From Clostridia bacterium (GTDB taxonomy: Bacteria > Bacillota > Clostridia > UMGS1840): 64,000 bases of DNA. The stretch covers positions 5,234-69,233 of the forward strand of contig JAZRFJ010000028.1 of the NCBI GenBank assembly GCA_045661305.1. The letters are read 5' to 3'. Each line of letters starts with the position of its first letter. Position 1 is the first letter of the stretch. Below the pieces are notes generated by a model. That model saw nothing but the letters and a program-made list of their open reading frames with translations, was not told the origin of the DNA and ran no database searches. Shown here one piece after another: positions 1,023 to 53,495 of the stretch. Made by a program: the position numbers and the translations under genes.

Positions 1023-1052
1023 GGATGTTAAAAAAGTCCAGACCGCAAAAAA
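1022..1052. repeat. 31-bp direct repeat, copy 1 (GGGATGTTAAAAAAGTCCAGACCGCAAAAAA)
   Basis: 28/31 identical to 1238-1268, offset 216 bp. The pair brackets the structured repeat at 1126-1230. Copy 1 starts at the last base of the SDR stop codon. Confidence 0.8.
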
Positions 1053-1125
1053 ATCAAACCAAAAAAATAAAAGAAATTTTAACAGATTTTTCTTGTTAGA
1101 ATTTAAAAAGTTTTTTGATTTTTTT

Positions 1126-1230
1126 GCTATGAACAAACCTCGCCTCTCGGTGTACCTTTGTACACCTTCGGGTTTCCCAAAGCTTTGCTTTGGCTCGGTT
1201 TGTCCATTCTGAAGCTTTTTTTCCTATCCC
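1126..1230 (-). repeat. structured intergenic repeat family E, copy E1 (candidate three-way-junction small RNA, minus-strand sense)
   Basis: The reverse complement aligns over about 105 nt with 51564-51670. Hairpins at 1149-1166 (GGTGTAC/GTACACC) and 1177-1193 (CCAAAGC/GCTTTGG). Closing helix 1131-1138 with 1202-1209. Covariation against copy E2. Confidence 0.7.
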
Positions 1231-1237
1231 TAAAAAT

Positions 1238-1268
1238 GGAATGTTAAAAAAGTCAAGACCACAAAAAA
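1238..1268. repeat. 31-bp direct repeat, copy 2 (GGAATGTTAAAAAAGTCAAGACCACAAAAAA)
   Basis: See 1022-1052. It contains GTCAAGACC, which recurs exactly at 15392-15400 and 17649-17657. Confidence 0.8.
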
Positions 1269-1278
1269 GGATTAAAAA

Positions 1279-1322
1279 GGGGAATTGCCGAAAGTTACAA
1301 AAAATTCCCCCTCCCCCCTATA
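1279..1322 (-). repeat. G-rich hairpin repeat family G, copy G1
   Basis: GGGGAATT (1279-1286) pairs with AATTCCCC (1303-1310), followed by CTCCCCCCTATA. The reverse complement TATAGGGGGGAGGGGGAA...CTTTCGG...TTCCCC aligns with 21837-21871. Confidence 0.6.
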
Positions 1323-1347
1323 AAAAACAACAACAAGGAGAACTAAG

Positions 1348-2077: not shown

Positions 2078-3616
2078 ATGACACACACACAATGGGGCAT
2101 GATACTTGCTATCGCAGTATATTTGCTCGGAATGGTATATATAGGATATATATACTCCAAAAAGACAGAAAATGCCGGAGATTTTTATCTTGGCGGAAGA
2201 AAATTAGGACCTTTTGTAACAGCTATGAGTGCGGAAGCATCTGATATGTCCGGTTGGTTACTTATGGGACTTCCCGGTGTTGCACTTGCAGGAAGTATTG
2301 CAGAAGCGGCATGGACTGCTATCGGTCTTGCAATAGGCACATACATAAACTGGCTTATTGTTGCAAGAAGAATAAGATGTTACACAGAGGTTGCAGGAAA
2401 TTCTGTTACACTGCCTGAATTTTTCGAAAACAGATACAAGGATAAATCCAAGCTATTAAGATTGTTTTCTGCACTTTTTATTGTAATATTCTTCGTTCCG
2501 TATACAGCCTCAGGATTTGTTGCTTGCGGAAAAGTTTTTGCAACTGTATTTGGCGCTGAGTATGTTACAGCGATGATTATTTCAGCATTCGTTATTGTTC
2601 TTTATACATCTATGGGCGGATTTTCTGCTGCAAGTACAACAGACTTTATCCAGAGTATTGTTATGTCAATAGCTCTTATTATAGTTGTTGTATTTGGTAT
2701 TTCAAATGCAGGCGGAATAAGTTCAGTAATTAATAACGCAAAAGATTTAAACGGATATTTCAGTCTTACAACACTTTCAAACTGGATGACAGACGGAAGT
2801 GTAGGACAATACAACGGTCTTACAATAGCATCAACACTTGCATGGGGACTAGGCTACTTTGGAATGCCTCATATTCTTTTGAGATTTATGGCTATTGAAG
2901 ATGAAACAAAGCTCAAGCTTTCAAGAAGAGTTGCATCAATATGGGTTGTTATCGCTATGTTTGTTGCAATAGCTATCGGTGTAATCGGATATTCTCTTAT
3001 CCAAAACGGCACAGTAACCACAATAGCTGACTTTGCACAGAGAGAAAATATAATTATGGTTATCGCAACACTCATAAGTGAATACGGATTTGTTTTTGCG
3101 CTCGTTGGCGGAATTATTCTTGCAGGAATTCTTGCTTCAACAATGTCAACAGCAGATTCACAGCTTCTTGCTGCCGCGTCAAGTATTTCAGAGGACATTA
3201 CTCAAGGCGTTTTGGGAATTAAAATTTCTGAAAAGAAATCAATCCTTATCGCAAGACTTACTGTTATAGGAATAGCTATTATCGGTATATTCCTTGCACT
3301 TAATCCTGATTCATCAGTATTCAAAATCGTATCATTTGCATGGGCAGGCTTTGGTGCGACATTCGGCCCTGTTGTTCTTGCTGCACTTTTCTGGAAGCGT
3401 TCAAACAAATATGGTGCTTTAGCAGGTATGTTAAGTGGTGCTATTATGGTATTTGTATGGAAATTCTGTATTGCTAAGCTTGGCGGAGTATTTGCAATAT
3501 ATGAGCTTCTCCCTGCATTTATAGTTGCTTGTATCGCGATAATTGTCGTAAGCTTGGCTACAAAAGCTCCTGAAAAGGAAATAACAGACGAATTTGAAGC
3601 TGTTGTTAACGCATAA
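2078..3616 (+). CDS. putP: sodium/proline symporter (SSF family)
   Basis: 512 aa polytopic membrane protein. The N-terminal FYLGGRKLGPFVTAMSAEASDMSGWLLMGLPG block is characteristic of PutP. Confidence 0.8.
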   Translation: MTHTQWGMILAIAVYLLGMVYIGYIYSKKTENAGDFYLGGRKLGPFVTAMSAEASDMSGWLLMGLPGVALAGSIAEAAWTAIGLAIGTYINWLIVARRIRCYTEVAGNSVTLPEFFENRYKDKSKLLRLFSALFIVIFFVPYTASGFVACGKVFATVFGAEYVTAMIISAFVIVLYTSMGGFSAASTTDFIQSIVMSIALIIVVVFGISNAGGISSVINNAKDLNGYFSLTTLSNWMTDGSVGQYNGLTIASTLAWGLGYFGMPHILLRFMAIEDETKLKLSRRVASIWVVIAMFVAIAIGVIGYSLIQNGTVTTIADFAQRENIIMVIATLISEYGFVFALVGGIILAGILASTMSTADSQLLAAASSISEDITQGVLGIKISEKKSILIARLTVIGIAIIGIFLALNPDSSVFKIVSFAWAGFGATFGPVVLAALFWKRSNKYGALAGMLSGAIMVFVWKFCIAKLGGVFAIYELLPAFIVACIAIIVVSLATKAPEKEITDEFEAVVNA

Positions 3617-4839: not shown

Positions 4840-5877
4840 TTAAAATATTTTAGCTTTTTTTAATAATTTCAGAAGTTTGTCGCATATAATATGCACAATC
4901 GTTGCAAGTATCACAGTTGTTATAATTGAGAGGATAATGAAACAGCTTGAATTAATGTTTGGCAATACTTTCTCAACAATCTCGAACACAAAACAATGCA
5001 TCAAATACATTTCAAAGGAAATACTACCTAAGAAATAACTTATTTTATTACCAATTTGAATTTTTTCGTTCAGAAGTAATATAAACGCAAGAATTGCCAC
5101 ACCCAACAAAATCTTTAAAATATAGTCGCCCCAAAAAACAATATGCTTGAAAGACAGATACGATACTCCCAGGACAAGCGACGACAAGCACGCAACAGAA
5201 ACCTTCAATATCCATTTCTGACAAGAGGGTTTTTTGATGCTGTCATAATTAGCAAATAAAACTATTCCCCAAACAAAACCAATAGATTCGGTACACCATG
5301 TAGTTGTCTGAACAATTCCAATAAGTTTTAAAATATAGAGCAGTAAGCTGAAAGCAATGACAACAAAACATACAATCGGTCTGCGAAGCTTCTCTTTCCA
5401 TTTAAAACGGTAACCAATCCAAAACGCAACATAGCACACCAAAAGCCATCTTACCCACACATTGATCTGTAGCGGGCTACCTAAACGGGAACTGCCGGCA
5501 AGCAGAATCATGTCAAGCAAGATAATAACAACATTAGATATCCAGTTAGGAAGAATCAGTTTAGGCAATCTGCTGGTCCAGAACCGTTCGGTTGAATTTA
5601 TTTTTTTGCTTATACCTACAGACAAACCGTAGGCGGAAGTCATAAAGAAGAATGTAACACCAATATACGCAAAACTGCCAATCATATCCTGGATTTTATT
5701 CTGATATGCTGTTGGGATGTGAACAAGAATTACGATTAAGCACCAAAATCCACGCATCGCTTTTGTGTTGTCCATATCAAAAAAATTGTCATTGCCAGAA
5801 GAAATGTACTTTGATCCATGCGTCAGCATAAGTACCAAAAAAACAAGGATACCCATCATAATTACATAGTCAAGCAT
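4840..5877 (-). CDS. acyltransferase family 3 membrane protein (O-acyltransferase-like)
   Basis: 345 aa with about 10 predicted TM helices. The N-terminal FDMDNTKAMRGFWCLIVILVHI block resembles the acyltransferase_3 R/H motif region. RBS AGGGGG. Confidence 0.75.
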   Translation of the reverse strand: MLDYVIMMGILVFLVLMLTHGSKYISSGNDNFFDMDNTKAMRGFWCLIVILVHIPTAYQNKIQDMIGSFAYIGVTFFFMTSAYGLSVGISKKINSTERFWTSRLPKLILPNWISNVVIILLDMILLAGSSRLGSPLQINVWVRWLLVCYVAFWIGYRFKWKEKLRRPIVCFVVIAFSLLLYILKLIGIVQTTTWCTESIGFVWGIVLFANYDSIKKPSCQKWILKVSVACLSSLVLGVSYLSFKHIVFWGDYILKILLGVAILAFILLLNEKIQIGNKISYFLGSISFEMYLMHCFVFEIVEKVLPNINSSCFIILSIITTVILATIVHIICDKLLKLLKKAKIF

Positions 5878-21836: not shown

Positions 21837-21929
21837 TATAGGGGGATGGGGGAACCTTTCGGTGTTTCCCCTTTGTCCCCCTATGACCCCTATCCCCCTC
21901 CTAGCGATCGCTCAATCGCCGCGAGGCTG
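21837..21929 (+). repeat. G/C-rich structured block containing repeat family G, copy G2
   Basis: TATAGGGGGATGGGGGAACCTTTCGGTGTTTCCCC aligns with the reverse complement of 1279-1322. The block is a local GC spike in an AT-rich genome. Further hairpins are GCGAT cgctca ATCGC and GCC gcga GGC, and it contains GCGATCGC. Confidence 0.6.
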
Positions 21930-21949
21930 AATGTCTTAATTTTATATGT

Positions 21950-26366: not shown

Positions 26367-26475
26367 TTGGATTTTGGATGAGAAAATTTGACTTTCGAGG
26401 AAGCTTGCCGCAGGTGTATATAGATACATCGAGGAAAAGCTGACGATGAAAACGAATTTTATCGCCAAAAGCCAA
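26367..26475 (+). repeat. imperfect long palindrome with a central GGTGTAT-atag-ATACATC hairpin in the pta-ackA spacer (possible degenerate relative of family E)
   Basis: The outer arms TTGGATTTTGGATGAGAAAATT and AATTTTATCGCCAAAAGCCAA are partly complementary. The central hairpin at 26413-26430 and the flanking CGCAG...CGAGG resemble the CGAAG-hairpin-CGAGAGG core of E1/E2. Confidence 0.35.
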
Positions 26476-47223: not shown

Positions 47224-47255
47224 GGCTGTGAACGATTGCTCACAGCCCTTTTTAT
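47224..47255. terminator. terminator hairpin between convergent genes
   Basis: GGCTGTGA acgattgc TCACAGCC followed by CTTTTT. Confidence 0.7.
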
Positions 47256-51516: not shown

Positions 51517-51566
51517 AAAAAGGGCTGTGGCAAAAATGTTTTAATTTTTGTCACAGCCCTTTTGGG
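51517..51566 (+). terminator. long terminator hairpin downstream of the IreB-family gene
   Basis: AAAAGGGCTGTGGCAAAAAT / ATTTTTGTCACAGCCCTTTT, a 20-bp stem with one G-T pair, then TTTT. Confidence 0.8.
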
Positions 51567-51670
51567 ACGAAGAAAAAATAGTGCAGAACGGACAAGCTGA
51601 GCCAAAGCGTAAGCTTTGGGGTACCCGAAGCTGTATGTGTATACAGCGAGAGGCGAAGTTTGTTCGTAGC
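51564..51670 (+). repeat. structured intergenic repeat family E, copy E2 (candidate three-way-junction small RNA, plus-strand sense)
   Basis: P1 51586-51593 with 51658-51665. P2 51602-51619 (CCAAAGC GTAA GCTTTGG, GNRA loop). P3 51630-51647 (GCTGTAT gtgt ATACAGC). Aligns with the reverse complement of 1126-1230. Confidence 0.7.
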
Positions 51671-51773
51671 ATAAAGCGTTTTGTTTATTCCTCAAAATTA
51701 TAATATTGAAAAAATCCCATCATGATTTTTTATGCTTTATGCGTTCTGTGCATTTTTGCACAGTCCCTATTTA

Positions 51774-53495
51774 TTACTTTACCATCTCAAGCATTGCATT
51801 TGCATACTTTTCTTTGTTTTCTTCAGCAAGCTCTGGTGTTTTTCCTAAAGTCATAACATAAGCTTTAATTTTCGGCTCTGTTCCTGACGGACGGAATGTA
51901 AGAAGCGTGCCATCTTCAAGCTCAAAGCTAAGAACATTTGAAGGCGGAAGCTCTATTTTCTTTTTGTCACCTGTTAAAACATCTGTAACAACCTGATTAT
52001 TATAATCATTTACTTTTACTACTTTAACTCCTGCAAACTCGCATGGTGAATTTTTAGATAAATCTTCCATTATTCCTTTTATTTTCTTTATGCCACTAAG
52101 TCCCTCATGTGATACAGAGATTGTTTTTTCTGTGTAATAGCCGTATTTTTCATAAAGAGCATCTAAAACTTCTTTTAATGTTTTTCCCTGCTCCATATAA
52201 AACGCTGCAGCCTCACAAATAAGCATAGAAGCATTTACCGCGTCTTTGTCACTTGCATGAGTTCCTGAAAGATATCCATAGCTTTCTTCAAAGCCAAAAA
52301 GATAGGTATTACTCTTTGTTTCTTCAAAAAGCTTAATCTGCTCACCGATAAACTTAAAGCCTGTAAGAACATCTATTACCTCTACACCATAGTCCTTTGC
52401 GATAGGTTTAATCATATTTGTAGTAACAATAGATTTAATTATTGCACCGTTTTTCGGAAGTGTTCCCCTTTTTTTCATGCAATCTAAAATATAGCTTACT
52501 ATAACAATACCAATCTGGTTTCCGTTTAAGATTTCATATTCACCACTGCTGTTTTTAAGCATAACTCCTGTTCTGTCAGCATCAGGGTCAGTTCCCACGA
52601 TAATATCGGCATTTATTTTTTTAGCATAACTAACTGCTATATCAAACCCCTCTGAATATTCAGGGTTTGGTGCTTTTACAGTTGGAAAATTACCGTCAGG
52701 AAGCTCCTGTTCCTTAACAACTGTCACATTTTTAAGTCCCATTCTCTCAAGTACAGTTCTTACAGGAATATTACCTGTTCCGTGAAATGGAGTATATACA
52801 ACTTTTAAATCAGTATTCTTTAAAACATCGGGATTTATGCTTAAATTCATAACTGCATTATAATATGCTTCGTCAACATCTTTTCCGATGATTTTTATAA
52901 TACCGCTTTCTACAGCTTTATCAAAATCTATCTTTTTCGCACCGTCAAAGATATCAATTTTCTGCATTTCGCTATACACAACCTCTGCCTCAGGCGGAGG
53001 GAGCTGTGCACCGTCAGACCAGTATGCCTTATATCCGTTATATTCTTTAGGATTATGAGAAGCTGTGATAACAATACCCGCAGTAGTTTTGAGATGCTTT
53101 ATTGCAAAAGAAAGCATCGGAGTCGGACGAAGACTTTCATATAAGTACACCTGTATATTATTTGCAGCTAAAACCTGTGCCGAAACCTTTGCAAACAAAT
53201 CTGCACATATTCTTGAATCGTAAGCAATGGCAACGCCTTTTTTCATAGCTTCTTCACCGTTTTTAACTATAAGGTTAGAAAGCCCTTGTGTTGCCTGTGC
53301 CACAGTATATATGTTCATACCATTTGTTCCTGCACGGATAATTCCGCGAAGTCCCGCAGTTCCAAACTCAAGCGATGCGGAAAATCTTTCTGCTATTTCA
53401 TTTTCATCATCTTTAATTTTTTCAAGCTCAGCTCTGTAAGAGTCGCAAAGGCCCTCATAATTGAGCCATTTTAAATAATTTTCTTTTGTGTTCAT
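51774..53495 (-). CDS. phosphoglucomutase/phosphomannomutase family phospho-sugar mutase
   Basis: 573 aa. Active-site TASHNPKEYNGYK and the metal loop GTDPDADR. Confidence 0.9.
   Translation of the reverse strand: MNTKENYLKWLNYEGLCDSYRAELEKIKDDENEIAERFSASLEFGTAGLRGIIRAGTNGMNIYTVAQATQGLSNLIVKNGEEAMKKGVAIAYDSRICADLFAKVSAQVLAANNIQVYLYESLRPTPMLSFAIKHLKTTAGIVITASHNPKEYNGYKAYWSDGAQLPPPEAEVVYSEMQKIDIFDGAKKIDFDKAVESGIIKIIGKDVDEAYYNAVMNLSINPDVLKNTDLKVVYTPFHGTGNIPVRTVLERMGLKNVTVVKEQELPDGNFPTVKAPNPEYSEGFDIAVSYAKKINADIIVGTDPDADRTGVMLKNSSGEYEILNGNQIGIVIVSYILDCMKKRGTLPKNGAIIKSIVTTNMIKPIAKDYGVEVIDVLTGFKFIGEQIKLFEETKSNTYLFGFEESYGYLSGTHASDKDAVNASMLICEAAAFYMEQGKTLKEVLDALYEKYGYYTEKTISVSHEGLSGIKKIKGIMEDLSKNSPCEFAGVKVVKVNDYNNQVVTDVLTGDKKKIELPPSNVLSFELEDGTLLTFRPSGTEPKIKAYVMTLGKTPELAEENKEKYANAMLEMVK

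Follow-up and report, generated by a model that had tools for sequence, protein, structure and literature searches.

A structured non-coding repeat dispersed at gene ends in gut Clostridia, with evidence for gain or loss between close strains

Introduction

Among the interspersed structured repeats of bacteria, the ERIC/IRU sequences of enterobacteria and the bcr families of the Bacillus cereus group form, for the most part, one long imperfect hairpin each. Repeats of the ERIC/bcr type share transcripts with the genes beside them, and for REP/BIME and ERIC a role in protecting the upstream mRNA from 3' exonucleases has been proposed. REPINs consist of two REPs of ~25 nt and a short spacer. HEARO/IscB omega-RNA and the IS605-orfB RNAs are structured RNAs of mobile elements, 150–300 nt long and conserved through protein binding, while class C group II introns, which are multicopy in Firmicutes, insert just downstream of intrinsic terminator stem-loops and in the direction of transcription. 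In eukaryotes, SINEs are non-autonomous retroelements copied by target-primed reverse transcription; we know of no SINE-type element that has been established in bacteria.

Here we analyse a family of structured repeats, family E, starting from a stretch of 64,000 nt of a Clostridia bacterium (UMGS1840; contig JAZRFJ010000028.1, positions 5,234 to 69,233), hereafter the window. A preliminary description, made from the letters of the window, had proposed two distant copies, E1 and E2, of a repeat of roughly 105 nt that folds as a three-way junction. We find that the repeat is larger than had been thought, that it belongs to a multicopy family of uncultured gut Clostridia, and that it shares features with several of the systems above while differing from each of them.

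Results

Two distant copies fold alike

The two copies had been estimated by eye to be about 80% identical. blastn aligned window positions 51572–51675 (plus strand) with 1223–1121 at 78.8% identity over 104 nt (E 1.2e-19), and a MAFFT alignment gave a mean column identity of 81% for E1 and E2. When folded separately, both copies gave the proposed junction of helices P1, P2 and P3, at -36.7 and -36.9 kcal/mol (z -4.7 and -5.8); the opposite strands of the ~105-nt copies folded more weakly, at -26.7 and -31.9 kcal/mol. The loops of P2 (GUAA in E2 and AAA in E1) and the two compensated base pairs that distinguish P3 of E1 from P3 of E2 are as originally reported. The closing helix P1 is present too but is longer than described, with 11 bp rather than 8, and holds two further pairs that are compensated between the copies. 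A pattern anchored in the joints matched the E1 and E2 sites alone in the window and gave 0 matches in 100 shuffles, and a covariance model (R1) scored E1 at 130.9 bits and E2 at 125.8 bits and detected no other family copies in the window. The pta-ackA spacer, which had been suggested to hold a weaker relative, does not harbor a family member: its hairpin (26408–26430, plus strand) scores 13.2 bits (E 0.78) and matches model positions 65–87 only, that is, the P3 hairpin; it is a chance match.

A larger unit contains the three-way junction as its 5' domain

Conservation extends well past 105 nt when the copies are aligned with long flanks. Rather than a free-standing RNA of ~105 nt, as first proposed, the three-way junction is the 5' domain of a unit of ~205–250 nt with a long-range helix and a second domain. 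The consensus unit runs from GGGGAUAGGAAAAAAUGnUUCAGAAC through the P1/P2/P3 domain, UAGCAAAAAGgc, a hairpin (GAAAAAUC...GAUUUUUC), ~55 variable U-rich nt and gcCUUUUUGCGGUCUGGACUUUUUUAACAUCCCC to a final uuuu. Its 5' end is GGGGAUAGG, the GUGCAG of E2 not being kept in other subfamilies. The median length in the family is 239 nt, with 204 nt for E2 and 209 nt for E1, and shorter, internally deleted forms are also present. RNAalifold, run on 77 full units, added two helices: P0, in which the 5' leader (the first ~26 nt) pairs with the 3' end (the last ~27 nt), and P4, which pairs GCAAAAAGgc with gcCUUUUUGC. In this model P1 is predicted to stack on P0 and to carry the conserved junction with P2 and P3, while P4 and a further hairpin, P5, would form a second arm. 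Across copies, conservation is strong at the nucleotides of the junction and at an unpaired ACCC motif. At least four T occur in the six bases after P0 in 49 of 88 units, so that the unit ends like an intrinsic terminator.

The complete E2 unit spans 51564–51767 on the plus strand, and its minimum free energy fold (-72.4 kcal/mol, z -7.1) matches the family architecture; the antisense strand reaches -54.3 kcal/mol, leaving the sense strand better by 18 kcal/mol. In this fold the 5' strand of P0, GGGACGAAGAAAAAAUAGUGCAGAAC (51564–51589), pairs with 51741–51767, which is the conserved 3'-end motif GCGUUCUGUGCAUUUUUGCACAGUCCC. The 5' domain (51588–51667) is made up of P1 (51588–51598/51657–51667), P2 (51602–51608/51613–51619) and P3 (51630–51636/51641–51647), and the 3' domain (51669–51742) of P4, in which GCAUAAAGC (51669–51677) pairs with GCUUUAUGC (51734–51742) around hairpin P5 (51709–51716/51724–51731). 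The complete E1 unit lies at 1022–1230 on the minus strand and folds into the same architecture at -66.2 kcal/mol (z -5.8). Its 5' domain (1129–1207, minus strand) is closed by P1 (1197–1207/1129–1139), which encloses P2 and P3, and in its 3' domain (1045–1127, minus strand) P4 pairs GCAAAAAAAUC (1117–1127) with GAUUUUUUUGC (1045–1055).

Covariation argues for a fold on the sense strand

In an alignment of 109 distinct sequences, standard pairs make up 96.3% of the P1–P3 cells, as compared with 29–44% when the partners are slid by 1–3 columns. Eighteen of the 24 pairs have changed on both sides (294 cells), the observed measures were reached by 0 of 500 shuffles, and several core positions show four or five different pair types. 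The pairing first drawn from two copies is thus kept in at least ~110 further copies and confirmed by covariation. For P0 and P4 the paired fractions are 92% and 96%, and double-sided changes affect 11 of 17 and 10 of 10 pairs, respectively; the A- and U-rich strands of these two helices raise the slid controls to 39–66%. When every helix of the full unit is counted, G.U occurs in 299 cells and A.C in 37 (~8:1). This excess assigns the fold to the plus strand for E2 and to the minus strand for E1, the orientation that had been claimed from G-U pairs in the two copies. Judging from these substitutions, the fold is under selection on the sense strand. G.T wobble pairs are tolerated in folded single-stranded DNA too, so that a fold of the unit at the DNA level may hold.

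The same data bear on whether the unit is a small protein-coding gene. Its P2 hairpin comes in lengths of 15, 16, 17 and 18 nt, which break any frame, and its substitutions are pairwise compensatory; indel lengths and covariation together rule out a coding reading, even though many copies carry AGGAAAAAAUG, which resembles a ribosome-binding site with a start codon, and an open reading frame of 51 aa is listed in the window at 51548–51703. The AUG is itself missing in many copies. Chance similarity is excluded by the E-value of 1e-19 and by the further copies, and we give coding and chance together a negligible probability. A hammerhead or other small-ribozyme core was also considered and rejected: the joint sequences differ from the consensus sequences of such cores, and Rfam gave no match.

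A multicopy family of gut Clostridia

To collect further copies, one genome per species was scanned with a pattern whose anchors lie in single-stranded joints only (GAGCC N15-24 CCCGAAG N12-24 CGAGAGGCGA); the invariance of these three anchors among the matches is imposed by the search. The scan returned at least 118 loci, of which 9 among those listed are chance matches in high-GC genomes. True copies number at least ~110, with as many as 7 in one assembly among the matches listed; they come from at least 56 assemblies, all species-level MAGs of uncultured gut Clostridia. The listed assemblies, from ruminant and human gut samples, are labelled Clostridia, Oscillospiraceae, Monoglobaceae, Congzhengia and Ructibacterium. 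R1 found anchor-variant copies in which, in 4 of 5 cases, GAGCC is replaced by GAACC together with GGCGA by GGUGA; this joint change is compensatory and supports a G:C pair between the two joints. The same model also finds copies without P2 and, at locus L099, an array of six degenerate tandem units of 129 nt. Genome-specific subfamilies are seen within the family. Many copies sit at contig ends, and the family appears to break MAG assemblies.

The preliminary description could not place the repeat in a named Rfam family, and Rfam 15 gives the same answer: there was no match in the whole 64-kb window at gathering thresholds, and at E<=10 both loci yielded nothing on the unit core and only junk (miRNA and snoRNA models on the adjoining hairpin). 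A blastn search of plasmid and phage collections with the E1 unit gave no match. The pattern scan of IMG/VR gave a single contig, so that a link to phages is not evident. A literature search did not find the repeat described.

Units sit at gene 3' ends beside terminator-like hairpins

Neighbouring open reading frames were called heuristically with a minimum of 150 aa. Of 92 downstream neighbours 69 are convergent and 23 co-directional; of 96 upstream neighbours 59 are co-directional and 37 divergent. Units in divergent-promoter regions are rare (5 cases), and 16 sense-oriented units have co-directional genes on both sides. In 55 of 88 units a convergent frame has its stop codon within -2 to +13 nt of the last base of the unit. 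At E1 the last base, a C, is part of the stop codon of an SDR gene (288–1022), being its first base as read on this strand, and the upstream gene is divergent; E2 ends 6 nt short of the stop of a phosphoglucomutase (pgm) gene (51774–53495). GC skew at the loci tracks the gene strand and is uninformative for the direction of replication.

The neighbours themselves do not point to a partner. Clustering of 646 flanking frames revealed no recurrent protein family beside the units, and by eye the families are housekeeping ones only (AraC-type regulators, ABC ATPases, ATP synthase, MATE, two-component systems, MutS2, Tex). Within 8 kb of the ~110 listed copies we found no protein that is multicopy within one genome and no reverse transcriptase, HUH enzyme or transposase, and none of these loci adjoins tnpB or iscB. 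All 3'-end motifs in the 8 kb around each of these loci belong to units or to fragments of them. No conserved sigma-70-type promoter was detected on either strand in the window and 77 units.

These surroundings speak to whether the unit is a cis-regulatory leader (a riboswitch or attenuator) or a guide RNA of the omega-RNA type for a nuclease encoded elsewhere. A conserved, aptamer-like three-way junction followed by a terminator-like helix would suit such a role, as would the 16 sense-oriented units between co-directional genes. A leader should precede a gene of its own orientation, yet the downstream gene is co-oriented in only the 23 of 92 cases given above and the neighbours are unrelated housekeeping genes; moreover, the terminator helix encloses the whole "aptamer" rather than competing with it. 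A guide RNA lacks its tnpB/iscB-like neighbour, and no guide-RNA family of Rfam matched. We therefore regard leader and guide roles as very improbable. As the identity of the unit, riboswitch, stand-alone small-RNA gene and transposon guide RNA were each rejected, on neighbour orientation, on promoter and synteny, and on tnpB/iscB and Rfam, respectively.

Upstream of most units there is a hairpin followed by a T-run, and the 3' arm of this hairpin resembles the 3' end of the unit itself: a local alignment score of at least 12 was obtained in 22 of 80 cases and in 0 of 80 controls. A fold of -10 kcal/mol or below was obtained for the 60 nt upstream in 53 of 80 cases, as compared with 31 of 80 controls. 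At E2 this is the hairpin that the preliminary description had placed directly before the repeat. We find it at 51522–51559, followed by TTTT up to position 51563 (plus strand) and with a 3' arm, ATTTTTGTCACAGCCC, that directly repeats the 3' end of the unit. Copies in one genome keep an upstream hairpin and linker in common even though their outer flanks are unrelated, implying that hairpin and linker travel with, or are rebuilt at, each copy.

Units are gained or lost between close strains

About 90 of the ~110 listed sites occur in a single assembly. Orthologous sites are few; they link species with flanking proteins 90–98% identical, and persistence at such sites means that a benefit to the host may exist. 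The E2 site could be compared with an empty one, in a strain (locus L140) whose pgm is 98% identical and in which the interval between the stops of pgm and ireB is 49 nt, against 263 nt in the window. The interval in that strain is a single bidirectional terminator, A6-GGGACTGTG-CAAAA-CACAGTCCC-G-T7. In the window the unit ends in 9 nt (CACAGTCCC) identical to the 3' arm of this resident terminator and begins with 5 nt (GGGAC) identical to the start of the resident 5' arm, while the copy of the unit 3' end in the left-hand hairpin is one base off the resident arm. This comparison implies an insert longer than one unit, with its 3' junction inside a short match to the target. The hairpin of the E2-less strain is shorter than and different from the left-hand hairpin of E2, which departs from it in more ways than a simple insertion predicts; this is the sole junction resolved at close range. 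We also considered that the empty site arose from a filled one by simple deletion between short repeats, and rejected this as the sequences do not fit.

The E1 site was followed through three relatives. At 94% identity (L145) the upstream fragment is retained and the interior of the unit is lost; at 84% (L146) only the 3' domain is present, the 5' domain having been replaced by another repeat; and at 78% (L147) the site is empty, with 23 nt between the two genes. Read in the orientation of the unit, this last site is TTTTTTGACAT|TAAATC and the end of the unit is TTTTTTAACATCCC|TAAATC, a match of 10 of 11 nt. Homology at the 3' junction was thus assessed at two junctions, one for E2 and one for E1. 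Exact matches to the IreB-like, pgm and SDR proteins of the window are not on record and the relatives came from homologue searches; a metagenome scan with the pgm protein gave relatives of 40–53% only, none of them with a unit. Two further candidates for comparison were discarded: the second copy at L104, where the contig ends in Illumina adapter sequence, and the pair L006 and L019, in which the relevant side is not syntenic.

Presence and absence between close strains show that the repeat moves or is lost. The unit is multicopy and amplified by lineage, is gained or lost between near-identical strains, and decays by internal deletion. The original suggestion of a dispersed structured RNA or a mobile RNA-like element therefore holds as regards a dispersed, structured and RNA-like repeat that moves or is lost between close strains, and fails as regards its extent of ~105 nt.

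No target-site duplication was seen at E2 in the comparison with the empty site. Nor did the flanks of 88 units match within loci, TA and TTTTA included; the T-rich flanks are the tail or linker of the unit. This result is relevant to the idea of an element that moves as DNA, either with its fold acting in single-stranded DNA for an HUH/Y1-type enzyme encoded elsewhere (REPIN/RAYT-like or derived from IS200/IS605) or as a MITE moved by a DDE transposase that recognises inverted ends. The ends of the unit do form an imperfect inverted repeat of ~17–24 bp (P0), copies are numerous with genome-specific subfamilies, they lie outside genes at gene ends and beside REP-like hairpins, and the absence of target duplications is as for IS200/IS605 and REPINs. 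For a DDE-mobilised MITE, on the other hand, the required duplication is missing. Covariation in every internal helix and conserved junction bases go far beyond what end recognition needs, E1 and E2 stand in opposite orientations within 50 kb, there is no transposase within 8 kb of the listed copies, and the IS605- and HEARO-type RNA models of Rfam do not match. Movement at the DNA level by such enzymes is, in our judgement, rather unlikely.

Partial copies are polar

The preliminary description had noted a 31-bp direct repeat bracketing E1. The repeat exists (1022–1044 against 1238–1260, 91% over 23 nt), but it is no target duplication: one member is the 3' end of the unit and the other an extra, 5'-truncated copy of that end, TTTTTTGTGGTCTTGACTTTTTTAACATTCC (1238–1268, minus strand), which lies 7 nt before E1. 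The same layout, a 3' fragment followed by a full unit, occurs in 17 of 88 units, with fragments from 20 to more than 130 nt that end 6–15 nt before the unit starts. The reverse layout, a full unit followed by a 3' fragment, was found in 0 of 88, and a full unit followed by a 5' fragment also in 0 of 88, true tandems aside. Full head-to-tail dimers do exist, for example at L061 with a period of 245 nt. Independent insertions or random deletions within dimers would yield both layouts equally. The ratio of 17 to 0 argues instead for copying from a fixed 3' end toward a variable 5' end, in a process that is able to pass one unit length.

This polarity is not what duplication with random deletion would give, and it bears on the view that the unit is an RNA module that serves its host and has spread by duplication and gene conversion between similar terminators. 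Such a module could be a decorated terminator or 3'-UTR structure that ends transcription and guards the upstream mRNA from 3' exonucleases, or a set of sibling trans-acting small RNAs released from 3' ends. It would account for the P0 helix with its T-run, for the position at gene 3' ends, for the strongly conserved junction and ACCC motif, for sites kept across species, and for the identity between the outermost P0 pairs of E2 and the terminator arms resident in the empty strain. Where the upstream gene is divergent, E1 included, there would however be nothing to terminate on the folded strand, and at E2 the preceding hairpin already serves as a terminator. Conservation between species is lacking at most sites, deletions erode the copies freely, and a stand-alone small RNA would have no promoter. 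A host-serving module is thus an unlikely reading, though we consider it the strongest of the rivals.

Discussion

We favour the view that family E is the 5' domain of a non-coding, non-autonomous mobile repeat unit which depends on its RNA fold and spreads among terminators. We hold this to be probable, by a modest measure, and put forward mechanism and cellular role as proposals. Polar copying would start at the terminator-defined 3' end of the unit, priming on short homology with resident terminators or with A/T-runs beside stop codons, and might pass one unit length into whatever precedes the unit in the donor. Two routes can be envisaged. One is reverse transcription, in the manner of a SINE, of a read-through RNA that ends at the terminator of the unit, the primer being an A-run by a stop codon or a terminator arm; in the other, similar terminator hairpins would exchange sequence through replicative template switching or gene conversion. 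Some protein, or the copying process itself, may have to recognise the conserved junction. As by-products, the host could acquire a terminator, added or rebuilt, together with a long and structured 3' tail. Two observations temper this proposal. No promoter is seen, and a co-directional upstream gene as a possible source of read-through is present in only 59 of 96 units, which counts against a reading in which RNA is the template. That some sites persist across species, and that the unit supplies a terminator-like end, counts against a purely selfish one.

The boldest form of this proposal is a bacterial counterpart of the SINE: a structured RNA of ~240 nt whose 3' end is set by its own intrinsic terminator and which is reverse-transcribed from that end. 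Priming would occur on A/T-runs and terminator arms at gene 3' ends, and copying would sometimes continue into upstream donor RNA or a second unit; in a variant, multimeric or circular RNA would be the template. Such a pathway would explain the polar partial copies, the hairpins carried along, the absent target duplications and selection at the RNA level, and yet we regard it as a doubtful, speculative extension of the favoured reading.

If the favoured reading is true, gut Clostridia hold an undescribed and widespread mobile non-coding family in which the selected feature is an elaborate RNA fold and not a pair of transposase-binding ends. The family would then add or rebuild terminators and long structured 3' tails at housekeeping operons, dozens of them in each genome. 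It offers a test case for how non-autonomous elements spread among bacterial transcription terminators and for whether RNA-templated, SINE-like mobility exists in bacteria. A covariance model is merited, so that copies can be annotated without confusion with a riboswitch or a small-RNA gene.

How does the unit compare with known systems? Leaders, as set out above, are a poor fit, and a stand-alone small-RNA gene would share the terminator-like end but not the lack of a conserved promoter or the ~90 of ~110 listed sites that are unique. Transposon guide RNAs are set apart by the absence of iscB or tnpB beside the listed loci and of a HEARO or IS605-orfB match in Rfam; in addition, the two ends of the present unit pair together, leaving no evident free end next to a guide. 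Class C group II introns are alike in their preference for terminators, their dependence on RNA structure and their multiple copies. The unit has neither an Intron_gpII or related Rfam match, nor a GUGYG 5' end, nor domains V/VI, and is far too small.

SINEs share with the unit a structured non-coding RNA (predicted here) with a defined 3' end, copies cut short on the 5' side and an apparent short match of the target to the 3' end; donor flanks may be carried over in both, and neither has an enzyme of its own. The features that bring the likeness to mind are the polar partial copies (17 against 0) and, from two junctions, the 9-nt match at the 3' junction of E2, where the other repeat copy is one base off, and the 10 of 11 nt at the distant empty site of E1. 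The unit differs in having a U-run tail instead of an A-tail, in that no variable target duplications were seen, and in that no reverse transcriptase partner was found in the 8-kb flanks.

MITEs of the Correia, RUP or BOX type likewise measure 200–250 bp and have inverted ends; they too occur in many copies whose insertions vary between strains, give rise to internally deleted derivatives and interrupt assemblies. The unit is, like them, small and non-coding with terminal inverted repeats (median 239 nt; ends paired over 17 aligned pairs at 92%; no frame-preserving open reading frame), but it shows no target-site duplication, either at E2 against the empty strain or in the 88 flank pairs. No parent IS with the same ends was seen in the 8-kb flanks, and, unlike in a MITE, the whole interior of the unit covaries and its partial copies are polar. 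REPs and REPINs resemble it in being palindromic, at gene 3' ends, terminator-like, without target duplication, with covarying arms and often clustered. The architecture is another matter, with ~190 nt of conserved, independently folded sequence between the arms, and no RAYT/HUH-like neighbour occurs in the 8-kb flanks.

The ERIC/IRU and bcr repeats are also short, non-coding, extragenic and multicopy, form lineage-specific subfamilies, keep their fold by compensatory changes, lack an open reading frame and are transcribed together with adjacent genes, as the present unit may be. The present unit differs from them by a closing helix with two internal domains, near-invariant junction joints and a terminator-like tail, and belongs to an unrelated host clade with an unrelated sequence. 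Altogether, the unit appears to behave as interspersed structured repeats do elsewhere in bacteria (ERIC, bcr families, REPINs and MITEs), and on this likeness we class it as a dispersed structured repeat.

Tandem and distant derivatives of the family E unit

At L099, a locus of another assembly, a degenerate 129-nt unit occurs as six head-to-tail copies that are 82% alike (1075-1851). These copies retain a P3-like hairpin together with its flanking joints (GCCCGACGGCGUAC...GUACGCCGAGCGG), and the array is a satellite-like derivative of family E. A more distant relative, scoring 55 bits, lies at 2928-3056 of locus L045: its P2 helix is long and different (GUAAAAUGUG...CACAUUUUAC) and its single-stranded joints are altered to CCCGACG and UAGGGUGA, showing that family E extends past the anchor pattern used in our scan. 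Locus L111 (4400-4620) carries a full unit, next to it a hairpin, and beyond the hairpin a ~30-nt 3'-end fragment whose strand is opposite to that of the unit; among the family E loci listed, this inverted arrangement has no second case.

At least 12 units are no more than a few hundred bases away from a true contig end (for example at L008, L010, L014, L020, L022, L028, L050, L060, L095, L117 and L118), which suggests that the family E repeat breaks short-read MAG assemblies. At the contig end of L104, Illumina adapter sequence (AGATCGGAAGAGCGTCGTGTAGGGAAA, 5020-5052) directly follows a unit, and this copy is probably an assembly chimera.

Other repeats and the Rfam scan

When the window (1-64000) was scanned against Rfam at gathering thresholds, zero RNA families were returned, neither tRNA nor leader RNA; pheT and other typically leader-controlled genes are present, yet they have no Rfam leader RNA match.

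A second small repeat family, G-rich and distinct from the family E unit, follows the pattern TATAGGGGGATGGGGGAACCTTTCGGTGTTTCCCC...CCTAGCGATCGCTCAATCGCCGCGAGGCTGA. One full copy (21838-21935, plus strand) lies between two minus-strand genes, and a shorter relative (~1274-1325, minus strand) forms the hairpin immediately preceding the 5'-truncated E1 fragment. In the 84% relative L146, the unit orthologous to E1 has this G-rich repeat (3380-3450) where its 5' domain would be, suggesting a nested insertion.

Finally, terminator hairpins whose arms are nearly identical (GGGACTGT/GGGCTGTG ... ACAGTCCC/CACAGCCC) recur at several sites: in the window at 47248 (minus strand) and 51522 (plus strand), at 3571-3593 of L140, the strain with an empty E2 site, and among the unit-associated hairpins of another genome, SVJM01 (L032, L034, L078 and L113). 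Their recurrence is a hint that these hairpins form a REP-like family with a relationship to the helix that closes the unit.
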